Of a stretch of DNA of 41,370 nt, positions 22,260-41,370 are shown piece after piece (the first letter of the stretch is position 1; each line of letters begins with the position of its first letter). A program made the translations under genes and the position numbers. Source of the stretch: a virus; IMG/VR virus record IMGVR_UViG_3300045988_025431, positions 1 to 41,370 of that record. One strand, given 5' to 3'. The notes under the pieces were generated by a model. The model did no database searches. It saw only the letters and a program-made list of their open reading frames with translations, and was not told where the DNA came from.

Positions 22260-23183
22260 TCAGTTAAAAGTGATGGTTTCCCCCATCGCAGCCCGTCTGG
22301 CGATCTCCGCCCGGTCTGCCGGGGTCAGCTTGGAAACATCATCCTTCACAACAACGGCGCTCTTGGGCGCGGCTCCGTTCTCCTGGGGTCTGGCCCCTCT
22401 GGCGCGGATATTATCCGTTACGGTCTTTTCCGCCTGTGCCGTGGCCTTGCTGAGAAAGTCATCCATGTGCAGGACCTTGTATGCCTGCTCCACGCTGACG
22501 CCTCTTTGTAGCAAGGCGAGGAAATCGGGATTGGTGTTGATCTCGGTGGGCAGGTCGAAGTCTGCCAGCAGGGGGTCCTGCTTCATGGCCTCCGCCTGAT
22601 CCATCCACGAGCGCAGCTGCTGTTCGCTGCGCTGACGGGCGTAATAGTCCTCCTGCGCCGCTCTCAGCCGTGCGTTCTCCTGCTGCATCTGCTGATACTG
22701 CCGGTACTGCTCCACGCTCATACCGGCTTCCTCTGCAGCCTGCTCCCAAAGAGAATTGTCCCGATCCACCGCCGACCGCAGGGCTTCAATGTCGCCGGGT
22801 GCCGTGCCGTAGCGAAGAGACAGGGCGTCCAGAATGGGCTGCTGTGCGTTCAGCGCTTTGCCCTGATCCGCCACGATGCGGCCCTGATCCTTTACCTTTT
22901 TCAGCCGTTCGCCTACGATCCGCTGTACCTCGGCGTCGAAGTCCGCCTTATAGTCACCGTTGATCAAATCCTTGAAGGATGCGCGTTGGTCTTGCTCCCC
23001 GGCGTCAGGAGCCGCAGTCTGCTTTCCGTAGACTACCTCGCCCGTTTTGGCCTGCTGGGCGACGTCAGGCCCGCCATTGGTCCCGCCCGTCTCGGCTCCG
23101 CCCTCTCCTGCTCCGCCGGACGCCCCGGAAGCGCCGCCGTCAAACAGAAACAGGCACATCGCCTTGACAAAAAAGTGTTTCAT
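22260..23183 (-). CDS. scaffolding protein with Phe-rich N-terminal leader
   Basis: AAAGGAGC RBS. The sequence is helical and rich in Gln, Glu, Ala and Arg. It lies between the portal/Prp genes and the capsid gene. The N-terminus is MKHFFVKAMCLFLFDGGASG. Confidence 0.7.
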   Translation of the reverse strand: MKHFFVKAMCLFLFDGGASGASGGAGEGGAETGGTNGGPDVAQQAKTGEVVYGKQTAAPDAGEQDQRASFKDLINGDYKADFDAEVQRIVGERLKKVKDQGRIVADQGKALNAQQPILDALSLRYGTAPGDIEALRSAVDRDNSLWEQAAEEAGMSVEQYRQYQQMQQENARLRAAQEDYYARQRSEQQLRSWMDQAEAMKQDPLLADFDLPTEINTNPDFLALLQRGVSVEQAYKVLHMDDFLSKATAQAEKTVTDNIRARGARPQENGAAPKSAVVVKDDVSKLTPADRAEIARRAAMGETITFN

Positions 23184-36570: not shown

Positions 36571-36767
36571 TTCCACGCATCCCCTCTCTGCCACGCCTTC
36601 GTGGCGCTGTTCTGGCTGGTGTAACCGCCGGTCTTGGCGCCGCAGAACCCGCAGCGCACGTAATGCTTAAACGGCGCGTCCGTGGATTGCACCCGCTCAC
36701 CGCTGTCCGTCCCGCACACCGGGCAGGGCGATAGCGGCATCCGCTCTTTTCGATTCCTTGCGTTCAT
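36567..36767 (-). CDS. Lar-like zinc-ribbon protein (66 aa)
   Basis: PCPVCG...VRCGFCGAKT...ATKAWQRG follows the Lar-family layout. It has an ATGA overlap with the upstream ORF. Confidence 0.5.
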   Translation of the reverse strand: MNARNRKERMPLSPCPVCGTDSGERVQSTDAPFKHYVRCGFCGAKTGGYTSQNSATKAWQRGDAWK

Positions 36768-36886
36768 CTCGCACTCACCACCATATACGACAGGGCAATC
36801 AATAAAAGCGCCAGAAAGCACATGAAGCCCATCCATGCGGAGGCATCCGCCTTCCGCTGCTCCCGCGTCCGTCTGTCACGCTTCAT
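36764..36886 (-). CDS. small membrane protein (40 aa)
   Basis: ATG 36886 follows GAGGGGAGGGG. It has one TM segment (WMGFMCFLALLLIALSYMVV). Confidence 0.4.
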   Translation of the reverse strand: MKRDRRTREQRKADASAWMGFMCFLALLLIALSYMVVSAR

Positions 36887-36980
36887 GCCGTCCCCTCCCC
36901 TCAATGAAATCCACGAGCTTGAAGGGCCACGTGGCCGCATACGCCACACCCAGAATTATAAAAAACAGACTCCAATCCAT
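36876..36980 (-). CDS. small membrane peptide (34 aa, MDWSLFFIILGVAYAATWPF...)
   Basis: Its ATG overlaps the stop of 36980..37234 (TGATG). It is hydrophobic and below the track cutoff. Confidence 0.35.
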   Translation of the reverse strand: MDWSLFFIILGVAYAATWPFKLVDFIEGRGRHEA

Positions 36981-37234
36981 CACCGGCACCTCACTAACTG
37001 CGCCAGTTCCTGCGCGTCAAATTTCAAAAGCTTGTCCAGCTTGTCCAGGTCATCCAGCGTCATGCGCGTTATACCGCAGATTCGCTTGCTGACCCATGCG
37101 TCCGGCAGGCCCATAGCCCGTTCCATACTTCGCTGGTTCCGGTATCCCCGTAAATGTGCCTTGCTTTCGATCAGGTTCCGGCGGAAGTCGATCCGATCCT
37201 GCCGCATATCCCGATTCAACTTTACTTTCGGCAT
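36980..37234 (-). CDS. small HTH-like regulatory protein (84 aa)
   Basis: Track ORF. MERAMGLPDAWVSKRICGITRMTLDDLDKLDKLL resembles an XRE-type HTH. Confidence 0.6.
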   Translation of the reverse strand: MPKVKLNRDMRQDRIDFRRNLIESKAHLRGYRNQRSMERAMGLPDAWVSKRICGITRMTLDDLDKLDKLLKFDAQELAQLVRCR

Positions 37235-37262
37235 TGCATTTTCCTTTCCCCTGTGCTATACT
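37234..37262 (+). promoter_or_regulatory. near-consensus sigma-70 promoter on the plus strand (TTGCAT - 17 nt - TGcTATACT)
   Basis: -35 TTGCAT at 37234-37239, a 17-nt spacer, an extended -10 TG at 37254-37255, and -10 TATACT at 37257-37262. Confidence 0.6.
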
Positions 37263-37268
37263 CAGCAC

Positions 37269-37336
37269 AAGAACACACTCCCCGTTGTTCTGCTTGCGCT
37301 CCGCCCGGTCTGATCCACCGGACGGGGCATTTTTTT
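37269..37336 (+). ncRNA. candidate ~68-nt small RNA antisense to the cro-downstream early mRNA
   Basis: It starts about 7 nt after the -10. Hairpin 1 is 37270-37275/37286-37291 with the C-rich loop CACUCCCCGU. Hairpin 2 is 37298-37309/37317-37328, followed by A plus seven U (37330-37336). Confidence 0.5.
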
Positions 37337-37342
37337 GCGAGC

Positions 37343-37549
37343 TCATGTCCGTGTCCTCCGCTTTTTAAGCAGGTCATCCACCGTCACGCCGAAATAGTCT
37401 GCAATGGCCTTTAAGGTGTCTACACGTGGGGACGATTCACGCTTGGCCCACTTCCCGATCGCTCCGTTGCCGATCCCGCACCGCTTCTCCAGCTCGGCAA
37501 TCGTGATCTTGTTCTTCACACACAAACGCTTGACATTTTCGTAGATCAA
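37343..37549 (-). CDS. Cro-like XRE-family HTH regulator (68 aa, TTG start)
   Basis: NVKRLCVKNKITIAELEKRCGIGNGAIGKWAKRESSPRVDTLKAIADYFGVTVDDLL, with an AAGGAGGG RBS. It is divergent from the CI-like gene. Confidence 0.8.
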   Translation of the reverse strand: MIYENVKRLCVKNKITIAELEKRCGIGNGAIGKWAKRESSPRVDTLKAIADYFGVTVDDLLKKRRTRT

Positions 37550-37770
37550 AGATCTCCCTCCTTTCAGAAACTCAGCATAGAAAATATTGAGGTTTCAAGC
37601 TCCCCTCTTGACAAACTGATAGAAAATGCGCTATTATTGTGTTGCAGATACAATTTATCAATTTCTAAAGCTCGCATTTGTGGGGGCTTGGTTTTTGTTA
37701 CCCTCTGAAAGCTATTATAGTAGCGAACTCGCTACTTGTCAATAGCTAATCCGCTACTATTGGATTATTT
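37550..37770. promoter_or_regulatory. genetic switch region with divergent promoters and operator-like repeats
   Basis: Minus-strand promoter: TTGATA (37661-37656), 17 nt, AATAAT (37638-37633). Plus-strand candidates: TTGACA 37608-37613, and TTGTCA 37736-37741 with TATTGG 37758-37763. There is an 18-bp palindrome AGTAGCGAACTCGCTACT at 37719-37736 plus an extra half-site CGCTACT at 37752-37758. ATAGAAAAT occurs twice. Confidence 0.6.
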
Positions 37771-37776
37771 TTGCTT

Positions 37777-38220
37777 ATGAATATTCGTAATCAGGCCATC
37801 GTTGCTAATATTAAAGATATTGCGACAATGCGCCGAACAACAATTAAACAGATTGAAAAAGATTTAGGTTTTGGAAACGGAATGATTGGGAAGTGGAAGT
37901 CTGCGCCCAAAAGCCCTCCGTTTGAAAAAATCGAAATGATCGCAGAGTATCTCGGTGTCACGGTAGATGATCTGACCGGCACCGCAGATACCCAGGCAGA
38001 ATACCCGGAGCTGTGGGCTGCTGCGGAAGCAAAGATCCGTATGGATGATGCTTTGGCAGGCATAAAAAAAGACGCCCCCGGCCCGCAGGCCGAGAGCGAT
38101 TTGGAGCGGAGGTTCAGAGCTGCTGCTGCAAAGCTTCCTCCTGATTTTCTGGAGCGTGAGATTGCGTATCTGGAACAGAAAGCGCAGCAGCTGCACGTTC
38201 CAACTGATTCAGATATGTAA
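37777..38220 (+). CDS. CI-like XRE-family repressor (147 aa)
   Basis: HTH IKQIEKDLGFGNGMIGKWKSAPKSPPFEKIEMIAEYLGVTVDDLTG. It is divergent from cro and on the same strand as the integrase. No obvious SD precedes ATG 37777, so the mRNA may have a short leader or none. Confidence 0.75.
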   Translation: MNIRNQAIVANIKDIATMRRTTIKQIEKDLGFGNGMIGKWKSAPKSPPFEKIEMIAEYLGVTVDDLTGTADTQAEYPELWAAAEAKIRMDDALAGIKKDAPGPQAESDLERRFRAAAAKLPPDFLEREIAYLEQKAQQLHVPTDSDM

Positions 38221-38284
38221 GCTGTTCCTCCGGTGGCAGGTGCTTCCATAACGTCACCAGCCGTTCGATTGCTGCGTCGTCCAT
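38114..38284 (-). CDS. 56-aa protein encoded antisense to the 3' end of the repressor gene (candidate antirepressor/regulator)
   Basis: ATG 38284 follows an AAAGGAGC RBS and lies downstream of the strong promoter at 38359-38331. Sequence: MDDAAIERLVTLWKHLPPEEQLTYLNQLERAAAAL.... It overlaps the repressor gene by 107 nt on the opposite strand. Confidence 0.4.
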   Translation of the reverse strand: MDDAAIERLVTLWKHLPPEEQLTYLNQLERAAAALSVPDTQSHAPENQEEALQQQL

Positions 38285-38330
38285 GTTCCGTGCTCCTTTC
38301 GTTCGTACATTCGTTCGATTCATGTTTTTT

Positions 38331-38359
38331 AGTATAGTACTTCTGTTTTGAGATTGCAA
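38331..38359 (-). promoter_or_regulatory. near-consensus sigma-70 promoter on the minus strand (TTGCAA - 17 nt - TATACT)
   Basis: -35 at 38359-38354, a 17-nt spacer, and -10 at 38336-38331. It points into the 3' end of the repressor gene. Confidence 0.6.
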
Positions 38360-39157: not shown

Positions 39158-39460
39158 AGCCCCGTTGAAAACCTTTGCCTTAGAACCCCACATTGGGTTT
39201 ATTTGTATGATTCCAGTATACCATAGGTAGCAGAAAAAGAAAACCAATAAGTTCCCCCGCCCCGCCGCCTCTGCAACAAGCGGCGGAGCCGGGGGCAGCA
39301 AGCTGGGGGGGCTTGCCGTGATGTAACCGTAACAGAAACAGGGTAGGTAGAGCAATTTTCAAATTTGGGTATTCGACACCATCCGACAAATTGTTACAAA
39401 ACAAAAATTGGTACTCTGCCTGTCCATATCTTGCCTGATTATGCAGGAGGGGGTATTTTT

Positions 39461-40924: not shown

Positions 40925-40952
40925 TTTTTCATCTGTAATTCATCTGTAATTT
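40925..40952. repeat. 28-bp direct repeat copy 1 (TTTTTCATCTGTAATTCATCTGTAATTT), putative integrase arm-type sites
   Basis: Identical to 41144-41171. Each copy contains CATCTGTAATT twice in tandem. Confidence 0.85.
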
Positions 40953-41035
40953 TATTTGCAAATGGATCTTTCCCTTGCCGATTATCGTTAAGGCTTGCCA
41001 TTTTCGGAATCCATGAAACCGTTGAAAGCAAAAGA

Positions 41036-41068
41036 AAAACCGGGAATCCATTGTGGATTCTCGGTTTT
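41036..41068. terminator. bidirectional intrinsic terminator downstream of int
   Basis: 15-bp stem 41036-41050/41054-41068 with one G-U pair. An A-run lies upstream and a T-run downstream, so it reads as a terminator on both strands. Confidence 0.7.
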
Positions 41069-41074
41069 CTCATT

Positions 41075-41103
41075 TGGTGGAGCCGAGGGGAGTCGAACCC
41101 CTG
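41075..41103 (-). other. tRNA 3' fragment (T-arm, acceptor 3' strand, CCA) = probable attP core
   Basis: The minus strand reads CAGGGGTTCGACTCCCCTCGGCTCCACCA: T-stem AGGGG/CCCCT, T-loop TTCGACT, 7-nt acceptor strand, discriminator A, then CCA. No matching 5' half is present. Confidence 0.75.
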
Positions 41104-41143
41104 TGTTTTTTCTTAAAACTATTGCAATTACAGCATTTCGCAG

Positions 41144-41171
41144 TTTTTCATCTGTAATTCATCTGTAATTT
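41144..41171. repeat. 28-bp direct repeat copy 2
   Basis: Identical to 40925-40952. An inverted copy of the CTGTAATT core lies at 41126-41133. Confidence 0.85.
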
Positions 41172-41370
41172 ACTTGGGGTTTACGATCCCGTGATAATAC
41201 GCGCCCAGCTTTTCCTTTGCTCCCGGGCCGTCCTTGTCCATCAGAAATGCCCTTGCCATATCTGCATAGAACTCTGCAATGGACACGCCGTATTTCTCCG
41301 CCACGATGGAATAGTCGGAATACATCATGTTCATGGTGATCCACCAGCAGGGCCGAGAAACCTTTTCCCA
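41170..41370 (-). CDS. 3' portion of the wrap-around 162-aa hypothetical protein (see 1..365)
   Basis: In-frame continuation ...AEKYGVSIAEFYADMARAFLMDKDGPGAKEKLGAYYHGIVNPK, ending at TAA 41172-41170. Bases 41294-41370 duplicate 1-77. Confidence 0.6.
   Translation of the reverse strand, partial: WEKVSRPCWWITMNMMYSDYSIVAEKYGVSIAEFYADMARAFLMDKDGPGAKEKLGAYYHGIVNPK
41294..41370. repeat. 77-bp terminal duplication of bases 1-77
   Basis: Exact identity checked base by base. The duplication falls inside a coding region. Confidence 0.95.

Follow-up and report, generated by a model that had tools for sequence, protein, structure and literature searches.

A putative antisense small RNA gene in the early operon of uncultured human-gut temperate phages

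Antisense RNAs of phage regulatory operons

Small antisense RNAs of phage regulatory regions are, to our knowledge, documented mainly in a few model coliphages and Salmonella phages, and we know of none described for the large group of uncultured temperate phages of the human gut. Lambda OOP, a 77-nt RNA transcribed from the promoter p_O, runs against the P_R operon in its cII-O region, and in E. coli the cis-encoded GadY RNA is complementary to a junction between cistrons, which are uncoupled by RNase III processing. Pairing of OOP with the early mRNA is followed by RNase III-dependent decay of the latter (PMC5415839), and antisense RNAs of Bacillus subtilis prophages are likewise cleaved by RNase III (PMC3531473, PMC5848175).

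Here we describe a module in the early operon of a gut phage (IMG/VR record IMGVR_UViG_3300045988_025431; the whole 41,370-nt stretch analysed is termed the window) that is predicted to specify an RNA of about 68 nt. Like OOP, this RNA would be short, have its own promoter and an intrinsic terminator, and be read against an early operon from between two of its genes. It differs in that OOP extends into the 3' end of the cII coding sequence, whereas the module RNA reaches at most the upstream stop codon, in lying one or more genes nearer to cro, and in belonging to another phage lineage, with no sequence or Rfam relationship between the two. The likeness to P22 sar extends to size (68-69 nt), to complementarity with the stretch between two cistrons of a phage regulatory operon (arc-ant in P22), and to a promoter that lies at the start of the downstream gene and converges on a strong sense promoter (PMC2629481). 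However, sar covers the ant ribosome-binding site (RBS) and blocks translation, whereas the duplex formed by the module RNA would leave the RBS about 20 nt outside; furthermore, the gene downstream of the module is no antirepressor, ANT and pRha genes lying upstream of it in relatives. SR6 of the B. subtilis phage SPbeta is comparable in being cis-encoded and complementary to a polycistronic junction, with duplex cleavage uncoupling the cistrons (PMC5848175), but it overlaps coding sequence on both sides, while GadY is unlike the module in that its processing stabilises the products; neither is homologous to the module RNA. As an autonomous promoter and terminator unit between two operon genes, present in some relatives and absent from others, the module also recalls the morons (Hendrix; PMC2629481), although morons in the classical sense are protein-coding and for the most part either co-directional or prophage-expressed for host benefit, whereas the module would encode a non-coding RNA antisense to its operon. 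On its predicted features, namely a short non-coding transcript with promoter and terminator of its own opposite a regulatory operon, it would belong with the cis-antisense phage RNAs of the OOP, sar and c4 kind.

The antisense unit of the window

The source of the window is an uncultured human-gut temperate phage in which nearly every long ORF between 2673 and 37549 lies on the minus strand, in keeping with the remark in a preliminary description of this DNA that the plus strand is otherwise empty. The module fills a short gap in the early operon. On the early mRNA this gap follows a 68-aa cro-like HTH gene (37343..37549, minus strand; Pfam HTH_3, 6e-12, and HTH_26; PHROG 8) and precedes an 84-aa gene (36980..37234, minus strand), by gene order the first of the early block for recombination and replication. 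The 84-aa protein gave a weak match to HTH_31 (E = 0.013), beyond which searches of Pfam, PHROG and PDB with this protein and with the 50-aa and 67-aa proteins of relatives returned nothing. A promoter scan recovered a candidate P_R on the minus strand (37714..37742; TTGACA-17-TATAAT, 12/12), the probable source of the convergent early transcript, with operator-like repeats at 37721-37758; in the gap itself no sense-strand promoter was found by eye or by scan.

Opposite this operon, the plus strand carries the -35 hexamer TTGCAT (37234..37239), whose first letter, T37234, is common to it and to the CAT start codon (37232-37234) of the 84-aa gene, an overlap that had been pointed out before. 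A 17-nt spacer separates it from an extended -10 element, TGTGcTATACT (37252..37262), which combines a TRTG/TGn motif with TATACT and in which TGcTATACT itself occupies 37254-37262. These elements, together with two hairpins and a T7 tract, had been listed in the preliminary description, and all were recovered on the plus strand where it had placed them. Its characterization of the promoter as near-consensus holds for the extended -10, with TATACT identical to TATAAT at 5/6 positions, but is too strong for the -35, which agrees with TTGACA at only 3/6 (sigma-70/sigma-A consensus) and for this reason is absent from the list of a simple promoter scan. The -10 spacing places the predicted +1 at 37269, and with a 3' end in the T-tract this delimits a predicted antisense RNA of 68 nt (37269..37336, plus strand), in which there is no ATG. 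RNAfold returned -27.7 kcal/mol for 37263-37340 (z = -2.75). The first hairpin is a 5' stem-loop (37270..37291, plus strand; AGAACAC...GUUGUUCU, loop UCCCC), and the second, recovered both by folding and by comparison, is a predicted intrinsic terminator with a 12-bp GC-rich stem and a 7-nt loop (37298..37328, plus strand). Its stem (37298-37309/37317-37328; -17.5 to -19 kcal/mol) contains one G-U pair and one C-A mismatch, the latter causing a simple scan to miss it, and is followed by one A and then by the T7 tract (37330..37336, plus strand) that would supply the U-tail.

Promoters of the class TTGnnn, 16-18 nt, TGnTAnnnT with at least 5/6 matches were seen twice in the window against 0.57 expected from first-order Markov shuffles, and terminator-like sites of similar strength 11 times on both strands against 4.7 expected. 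From these rates a chance promoter followed 40-90 nt downstream by such a terminator would arise about 0.002 times per window. The decisive support for the predicted RNA gene is, however, comparative rather than drawn from such chance estimates.

A module recurring among gut phages

A module of about 110 bp (99-121 nt among variants) recurs in more than 150 human-gut viral contigs, with at least 120 from IMG/VR together with further metagenome contigs, and these yield about 100 unique instances overall. Each locus searched has a single copy, oriented against the early operon in every case. All contigs that carry the integrase or Cro have the circular phage form, and the terminase relatives are uncultured faecal phages. 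By sequence, the elements can be divided into at least three types (A, B1 and B2), and our covariance model R1 detects a single copy in the window (60.5 bits, E = 2e-10). The module occurs in the group to which the window belongs but not in the L009-L048 group, where Cro is 67% identical and is followed by a gap of only about 45 nt. In Rfam searches of the window nothing meaningful emerged at either the gathering or a permissive threshold, including for P1/P7 C4 and other phage RNA families (best sub-threshold match: anti-hemB, 15.5 bits, E = 0.9). ARAGORN found no complete tRNA in the window, whose attP core (41076-41105) is tRNA-derived. GenBank phages contain no match to the region of the window, a type B element matching one unannotated faecal phage record, the only carrier there; a pattern scan of species-representative genomes produced just three chance matches in unrelated phyla. 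We propose that the module is the first member of a hitherto undescribed candidate RNA family present in well over a hundred gut phages. A small sense-strand ORF starting at the ATG of AAAATGCCCC was also considered and rejected, as the ATG is missing in several variants and their length ranges over the 99-121 nt given above.

In the relatives the -35 reads TTGCAT, TTGCCT, TTGCTT, TTGCAA or TTGACA, and the -10 always stands 17 nt from it, even where the flank holds no RBS or start codon (L007, L223, L227, L053 and L046). The -10 variants TATACT, TAAAAT, TACAAT and TATAAT share invariant A2, A4 and T6 with variable positions 3 and 5; T1 was set by the search pattern, which in the largest data set also imposed TGn and part of the conservation of the -35 and spacer. 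TGn is found too in four homologues retrieved via the RNA body alone, with TTGCAA-17-TGnTATACT in L007, L223 and L227 and TTGCCT-17-TGtTACAAT in L053, all in unrelated flanks, and is missing solely in the distant L046/L052 branch, which was retrieved in the same way and has a perfect TTGACA-17-TATAAT. At the level of sequence, this pattern of variation in the -10 together with the fixed spacing is conservation of the promoter type.

The edges of the module fall precisely on the upstream stop codon and the downstream start codon, and it joins at least nine kinds of upstream gene to at least five kinds of downstream gene. This would suit an RNA with no function of its own, the module being a one-way terminator that shields the upstream genes against antisense transcripts or a conserved linker for cassette recombination, and its promoter fortuitous. 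We consider this very unlikely, in light of the retention of the promoter at 17-nt spacing in unrelated flanks and as a perfect consensus in the most distant homologues, the 5' hairpin at the predicted +1 in all types, and the failure to find any other plus-strand promoter upstream of the module that its terminator could stop.

The preliminary description had placed the unit next to cro, which proves incidental: in relatives with an identical Cro, antirepressor-type genes (ANT, pRha) or other ORFs intervene between cro and the module, which stays joined to the gene that follows it, an 83/84-aa or 37-aa ORF. This bears on the alternative raised in that description, namely a P_RE-like establishment promoter with an attenuator, whose regulated read-through would run antisense via cro into the repressor gene. 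The geometry is indeed that of lambda P_RE, the promoter facing cro and cI and its -35 overlapping the start of the gene after cro, and the weak HTH match of the downstream 84-aa protein could be read in the same way. Yet the extended -10 is strong and needs no activator, a single TTGC is present instead of a TTGC-N6-TTGC repeat, the best conserved part of the module is a terminator about 60 nt downstream of the promoter, many relatives have 0.1-1.5 kb of further genes between cro and the module, and the downstream gene varies among ORFs of 50, 84, 67, 37 and 129 aa. Such a promoter is accordingly disfavoured, and we regard it as extremely improbable.

A comparably slight probability attaches to an antitoxin RNA of the type I toxin-antitoxin kind. 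Two conserved small single-pass membrane peptides, of 34 aa (MDWSLFFIILGVAYAATW...) and 40 aa (...WMGFMCFLALLLIALSYMVV), are encoded after the 84-aa or 37-aa gene, and antisense RNAs of Firmicutes prophages often guard small toxins of this kind (PMC3531473, PMC6563280), which would make the module RNA a restraint on peptides encoded further down the operon. The peptide ORFs, however, lie at least 250 nt from the predicted RNA, which overlaps neither them nor their RBSs, and have no promoter of their own. No antisense overlap with a hydrophobic toxin mRNA was found, the neighbours of the module being hydrophilic or HTH-like and the directly following gene mostly encoding a hydrophilic 50-aa or an HTH-like protein.

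No part of the module is better conserved than the terminator, with its 12-13-bp GC-rich stem and U-tract; in relatives the stem ends 58-74 nt from the predicted +1. After the stem, T occupies 6-7 of 8 nt on the plus strand in 75 of the 82 unique elements, against 0-2 on the sense strand. The stem cells are paired in 98.1% of cases on the plus strand versus 86.2% on the sense strand, an asymmetry that arises from G-U/A-C positions; both sides have changed in a compensatory manner at 4 pairs, and the values for pairing and covariation exceed those of all 500 shuffles and all slid controls. Of 29 unique variants, 24 have the more stable fold on the plus strand. These pairing statistics identify the plus strand as that of the predicted RNA. 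The T-tract, too, is confined to the plus strand. Against this assignment, the stem of the window copy has one mismatch per strand and folds slightly better on the sense strand (-21.2 vs -19.0 kcal/mol). The 5' hairpin begins at +1/+2 in types A, B1 and B2 and in L128, although their sequences are unrelated; in L128 it folds on the plus strand only (-8.7 vs -0.7 kcal/mol), while overall there is no asymmetry, the plus strand being favoured in 19 variants and the sense strand in 15. The RNA varies most in the loop of this hairpin, and the C-rich loop that had been likened to an anti-Shine-Dalgarno sequence is restricted to part of type A, those of B1 and B2 reading, for instance, GAGCCUA and UGUGGUG.

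Folding of the sense strand is itself good (-40.9 kcal/mol, z = -2.1). In particular, an inverted repeat around the -10, CTTGTGCT-N6-AGCACAGG (37249..37272, minus strand; identified from folding and variants), would form a stable hairpin in the early mRNA just 5' of the RBS, with -10 to -14 kcal/mol in most variants. It partly co-varies, as in the paired indel change between CCTGTGCT/AGCACAGG and CCGTGCT/AGCACGG; L046 has other arms (GGCTT/AAGCC), and L195 and L053 are without the repeat. The functional molecule might accordingly be the early mRNA, with a processing or stabilising site or a put-like antitermination element, the plus-strand signals being incidental, and the putR site of HK022 does lie just downstream of cro. 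This reading is very improbable indeed, as the G-U/A-C asymmetry of the main stem points to the plus strand, TAnAnT is kept where the palindrome has been lost (L195 and L053), and the A-tract upstream of the hairpin is conserved though it would have no role on the sense strand.

Taken together, promoter, +1, hairpin, terminator and T-tract are conserved or co-vary in the relatives, which upholds the initial proposal of a self-contained unit for an antisense RNA of about 68 nt, and we conclude that 37234-37336 very probably contains a genuine RNA gene.

Pairing geometry and proposed mode of action

By its location the predicted RNA would be perfectly complementary to the early P_R transcript between two cistrons, from just past the stop codon of the first to 35 nt short of the next start codon. 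In relatives no more of the upstream gene than its TAA stop codon lies in the A-tract. In the window the 3' end of the RNA falls 6 nt short of the cro stop codon, and its 5' end at 37269 is 35 nt from the downstream start codon at 37234, so that the Shine-Dalgarno sequence (about 37241-37248) remains outside the duplex. Hence a translation block of the sar type would not be available, and translational repression would not be explained by this geometry.

We posit, with moderate confidence, that the best explanation overall is an independent non-coding RNA gene of about 68 nt that uncouples cro from the distal early genes. Occupying, as a moron would, the first substantial gap that the leftward early operon offers, it would be transcribed from the plus strand by the host RNA polymerase with its primary sigma factor, and the intrinsic terminator would end the transcript. 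The RNA would build up in the lysogen, or early after infection while P_R is weak, and pair with any early transcript that reaches the module; the resulting duplex of about 68 bp would be cleaved by a double-strand-specific RNase of the RNase III type. For this mode of action, OOP and sar (PMC2629481, PMC5415839) and the RNase III-cleaved antisense RNAs of B. subtilis prophages (PMC3531473, PMC5848175) are precedents. Cleavage would uncouple cro and the upstream cassettes from the distal recombination and replication genes, whose expression would be lowered on balance, whereas strong firing of P_R would silence the RNA through convergent transcription across the antisense promoter. The unit might in this way serve as a threshold or noise filter on lytic commitment. 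Action in cis on the early mRNA through pairing and processing has, in our estimate, about an even chance of being correct. That the net effect is repression is more tentative and falls somewhat short of even; the sense hairpin between the duplex and the RBS could shield the processed mRNA and give a neutral or positive outcome as with GadY. The immunity-reinforcing function suggested in the preliminary description is plausible for the putative RNA.

Alternatively, the main job of the RNA might be performed in trans, the RNA of the prophage pairing with early transcripts of any superinfecting phage whose module is of the same type. This would amount to RNA-based cross-immunity independent of CI and Cro, with types A, B1 and B2 as specificity classes. 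Phages whose Cro proteins are only about 67% identical do share a module type, and where Cro is identical the module type can differ (A, or B1 in L225); moreover, the variation is concentrated in the loop of the 5' hairpin, as in the specificity loops of antisense RNAs, and no operator common to the cI-cro region and the antisense promoter was found when looked for, such that the promoter may be on in lysogens. Neutral drift of a cis pair, together with modular recombination, would however produce the same pattern, and because the target lies beyond cro, early expression of cro by the invader would go unblocked. A cis-antisense pair is self-complementary whatever its sequence, and a variable 5' loop is thus expected, whereas a seed that acts in trans would lack such freedom. 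We judge a main role in trans to be decidedly unlikely. Two matches elsewhere in the window were set aside as targets: a 14-nt identity at 22305-22318 (E = 0.008), which involves the base-paired 5' arm of the terminator and is taken as chance, and a 13-nt inverted match to 37503-37515, which could pair only with plus-strand RNA and is irrelevant as a target.

The family is an abundant one, placed where the immunity region gives way to the recombination and replication genes, and its members are short enough for testing in synthetic constructs. It would supply a new curated RNA family for the annotation of viral metagenomes. It is conceivable, though unlikely, that the module provides a second, RNA-based layer of immunity that assorts independently of CI and Cro, the RNA of a resident prophage silencing the distal early genes of incoming phages with a module of its own type; we would assign a similarly small chance to types A, B1 and B2 and the hypervariable 5' loop being specificity classes shaped by competition between co-resident phages in the gut, which would make the system a phage counterpart of the incompatibility groups set by plasmid antisense RNAs. 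If the RNA does set a threshold for early expression or confer cross-immunity between heteroimmune phages, it would bear on the stability of prophages and on competition between phages in the human gut.

Signals and setting of the antisense unit

The 108-nt gap that separates cro from the next early gene (36980..37234, minus strand) is occupied by a plus-strand unit that, on comparative sequence evidence, is well supported as an antisense RNA gene. Direct reading of the sequence places every promoter, hairpin and T-run element where the preliminary description had put it: a -35 box TTGCAT (37234-37239), a 17-nt spacer, an extended -10 TGcTATACT (37254-37262), a 5' hairpin also recovered by folding (37270-37291), a GC-rich terminator hairpin (37298-37309/37317-37328) whose stem includes a single G-U pair and a single C-A mismatch and a T7 run (37330-37336), with a predicted +1 at 37269. 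The two bases before it extend the -10 to TGTGcTATACT; such a TRTG-type extended -10 is common in Gram-positive promoters. The -35 box does overlap the downstream start codon, T37234 being common to the -35 and to the CAT of that codon. The predicted RNA region folds with -27.7 kcal/mol (z = -2.75). The wording "near-consensus" was generous, as the -35 matches 3 of 6 positions; for this reason, and because the terminator is mismatched, a consensus scan of the window listed neither signal. Promoters of this class number 2 in the window against 0.57 expected and terminators of this strength 11 against 4.7 (both strands); at these frequencies, such a promoter followed 40-90 nt further on by such a terminator should arise by chance about 0.002 times per window.

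The window spans the entire, circularly permuted genome (55% G+C) of an uncultured human-gut temperate phage. A 77-nt direct overlap of its ends (1-77 = 41294-41370) shows that the full phage genome was assembled as a circle, so no host flank is recoverable from it. The same phage occurs in other assemblies as contigs of 41.3 kb, where the integrase gene lies directly next to the tail/lysis end, and by terminase its closest relatives are faecal phage records that carry no annotation. The likely attP region (40925-41171) includes a partial tRNA gene (3' part, minus strand, 41076-41105), comprising the T-arm GGTTCGACTCC... and a CCA end and flanked by two copies of TTTTTCATCTGTAATTCATCTGTAATTT with their core at 40930-40951 and 41149-41170; ARAGORN found no complete tRNA.

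The minus strand carries genes from ~2.7 kb to 37.5 kb, and the immunity region comprises a cI-like HTH gene (37771..38220, plus strand) and a cro-like HTH gene (37343..37549, minus strand). The consensus promoter scan yielded a candidate P_R with a perfect TTGACA-17-TATAAT (37742..37714, minus strand), over which lie the operator-like repeats TAGCGAACTCGCTACT and TAGCTAATCCGCTACT (37721-37758). It faces a candidate P_RM (TTGACA-18-TATTAT, plus strand, 37608-37637), and the two transcripts would overlap by ~60 nt. At the 3' end of the cI-like gene we observed a second convergent unit (38066-38359, minus strand), composed of a promoter-like TTGCAA-17-TATACT (38359..38331), a 56-aa ORF (MDDAAIERLVTLWKHLPPEEQLTYL...; 38285..38114) with an AGGAG ribosome binding site, and a strong intrinsic terminator with a hairpin (38098-38073) and T7. 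This ORF is antisense to the last ~35 codons of cI, and the terminator sits within the cI ORF, its two G-U pairs forming on the minus strand only. A divergent relative (L229) retains both the ORF, including its EEQLTYL motif, and the terminator.

Recurrence as a mobile module

IMG/VR searches with the 84-aa product of 36980..37234 and with Cro as queries revealed the gap to be a discrete ~110-bp module recurring in relatives, and a pattern scan anchored on its ribosome-binding-site end recovered at least 120 further contigs; the combined searches gave at least about 100 unique instances and at least 82 unique element sequences. Where Cro is ~67% identical, the module is absent and a ~45-nt gap stands instead. 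R1, a covariance model of the RNA body, detects a single copy in the window (60.5 bits, E = 2e-10) and one at each related locus, in every case antisense to the early operon. A GC-rich hairpin on the plus strand at 39256-39289 (CCCGCCCCGCCGCCTCTGCAACAAGCGGCGGAGC), whose loop CTGCAACA is common to terminators of the sRNA family, scores 16.8 bits against R1 (E = 0.22) and is followed by no T-tract.

Next to an identical Cro, different genes lie between cro and the module: a 72-aa ORF with an AntA/ANT antirepressor, an HTH protein with a pRha-family protein, or other ORFs. In all relatives with identical Cro the module lies directly 5' of an 83/84-aa or 37-aa gene, which heads a conserved block coding for two small membrane peptides, Lar, HTH_39, Gp157, ERF or Sak, HNH, SSB and RusA. 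Family-wide, the module is flanked by at least nine kinds of upstream gene and at least five kinds of downstream gene, with recognisable Cro homologues 0-1.5 kb upstream on the same strand. Based on the varied upstream genes, the constant downstream block and the many kinds of flank, the module is a mobile, moron-like unit at the junction of the immunity/antirepressor region and the recombination/replication genes, and the position "next to cro" first ascribed to it is one arrangement among several, as other genes intervene in relatives with the same Cro. Furthermore, the same Cro is found with the module's sequence class A or B1 (the latter in L225), and the same type B with different Cro proteins, so module type assorts independently of immunity type. 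In L221, L224, L226, L227 and L229, all with identical Cro, antirepressor-type cassettes (AntA/ANT, or small HTH with pRha-family protein) separate the module from cro; they sit upstream of the antisense RNA and not beneath it. In the window the two conserved single-pass membrane peptides, of 34 aa (MDWSLFFIILGVAYAATWPFKLVDFIEGRGRHEA) and 40 aa (MKRDRRTREQRKADASAWMGFMCFLALLLIALSYMVVSAR), directly follow the 84-aa gene (36764-36989, minus strand).

Promoter persistence and one-way termination

The antisense -10 is TATACT in type A (window included), TAAAAT in B1, TACAAT in B2 and TATAAT in L128 and L195; positions A2, A4 and T6 are invariant, positions 3 and 5 vary, and T1 was imposed, along with the -35, spacer and TG, by the pattern scan used for the main set. 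As that scan fixed these elements, R1 was built from the RNA body only and run on loci fetched through Cro rather than through the element. The further homologues thus found retain the promoter amid quite different flanks: as TTGCAA-17-TGnTATACT in L007, L223 and L227, where the -35 lies clear of any ribosome binding site or start codon; as TTGCCT-17-TGtTACAAT with a different spacer in L053 and L054; and as the perfect consensus TTGACA-17-TATAAT in the most distant homologues, L046 and L052. Judging from these sequences, this is the behaviour expected of a promoter under selection, and its retention in unrelated flanks disfavours a functionless linker or insulator.

In types A, B1, B2 and L128, whose sequences are unrelated, a 5' stem-loop starts at +1 or +2; that of L128 folds on the plus strand only (-8.7 versus -0.7 kcal/mol). 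The end of the terminator stem lies 58-74 nt from +1, and four of its pairs show changes on both sides. Standard pairs, many of them G-U, form in 98.1% of 413 stem cells on the plus strand, whereas 86.2% pair when the same cells are read on the sense strand, where the G-U positions become A-C mismatches. The plus-strand fold is more stable in 24 of 29 unique stem variants (mean difference 3.2 kcal/mol), the window's own stem being one of the five exceptions, and 75 of 82 elements have 6-7 T among the 8 nt after the stem on the plus strand, compared with 0-2 on the sense strand. The wobble asymmetry, the fold stability and the plus-only T-tract point to a one-way terminator for plus-strand transcription, bearing out the initial reading of an intrinsic terminator on that strand only. 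The same wobble asymmetry speaks against a sense-strand RNA element (put-like or a processing site, for example), as do conservation of the A-tract and survival of the -10 in variants without the palindrome around it. The P_RE-like promoter with read-through, offered originally as the alternative to an antisense RNA, is likewise disfavoured, given the strong conserved terminator, a promoter that appears activator-independent and the genes intervening between module and cro in relatives.

Predicted mode of action and relation to known RNAs

By geometry the predicted RNA is, as proposed at the outset, fully complementary to the early mRNA over the stretch that begins just past the stop codon of the upstream gene and ends 35 nt short of the following start codon; its 5' end does not reach the ribosome binding site. 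It overlaps no small hydrophobic ORF, which disfavours a type I antitoxin. No operator shared by the antisense promoter and the cI-cro region was found. Among internal stretches, only the loop of the 5' hairpin lacks a majority base: the C-rich loop (UCCCC), earlier likened to anti-Shine-Dalgarno loops, is confined to part of type A, with GCUGUCUUUU in L133 and, for example, GAGCCUA and UGUGGUG in B1 and B2. A variable loop with kept stems and terminator fits a cis pair, self-complementary whatever its sequence, and speaks against a conserved trans seed; cross-immunity exerted in trans by the RNA, the most novel of the readings, is less probable. A 14-nt perfect identity between 22305-22318 and sRNA positions 31-44 (CTCCGCCCGGTCTG; blastn-short E = 0.008), which would allow pairing with the minus-strand late mRNA, is probably due to chance, as these nucleotides belong to the terminator's 5' arm and are paired.

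In light of the fit to a cis pair and the precedents of lambda OOP and P22 sar (PMC5415839, PMC2629481) and of RNase III-dependent antisense control of Bacillus prophage genes (PMC3531473, PMC5848175), we propose that the RNA-mRNA duplex would trigger double-strand-specific cleavage in the spacer and thereby break the coupling between the genes upstream and the distal early genes. We also propose mutual interference between this short convergent unit and the consensus P_R, such that the RNA would be abundant while P_R is quiet and off at full P_R activity. The effect may be of either sign. Between the duplex and the ribosome binding site lies a stable sense-strand hairpin centred on the -10 (37249-37272), with -10 to -14 kcal/mol in most variants and a paired indel change; its arms differ in L046, and neither L195 nor L053 has it. 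It could shield the 5' end of the processed downstream mRNA, or might instead be a protein-binding palindrome over the -10.

By analogy, the unit may work like OOP, sar or SR6, although OOP overlaps the upstream coding sequence and sar covers the downstream ribosome binding site, neither of which the module RNA does. The unit matched no Rfam model, no description of the module turned up in the literature searches, and only one unannotated record among GenBank phages carries it. The module RNA belongs to a new family of a familiar kind, one that is abundant in gut phages, clearly delimited and readily tested with synthetic constructs.
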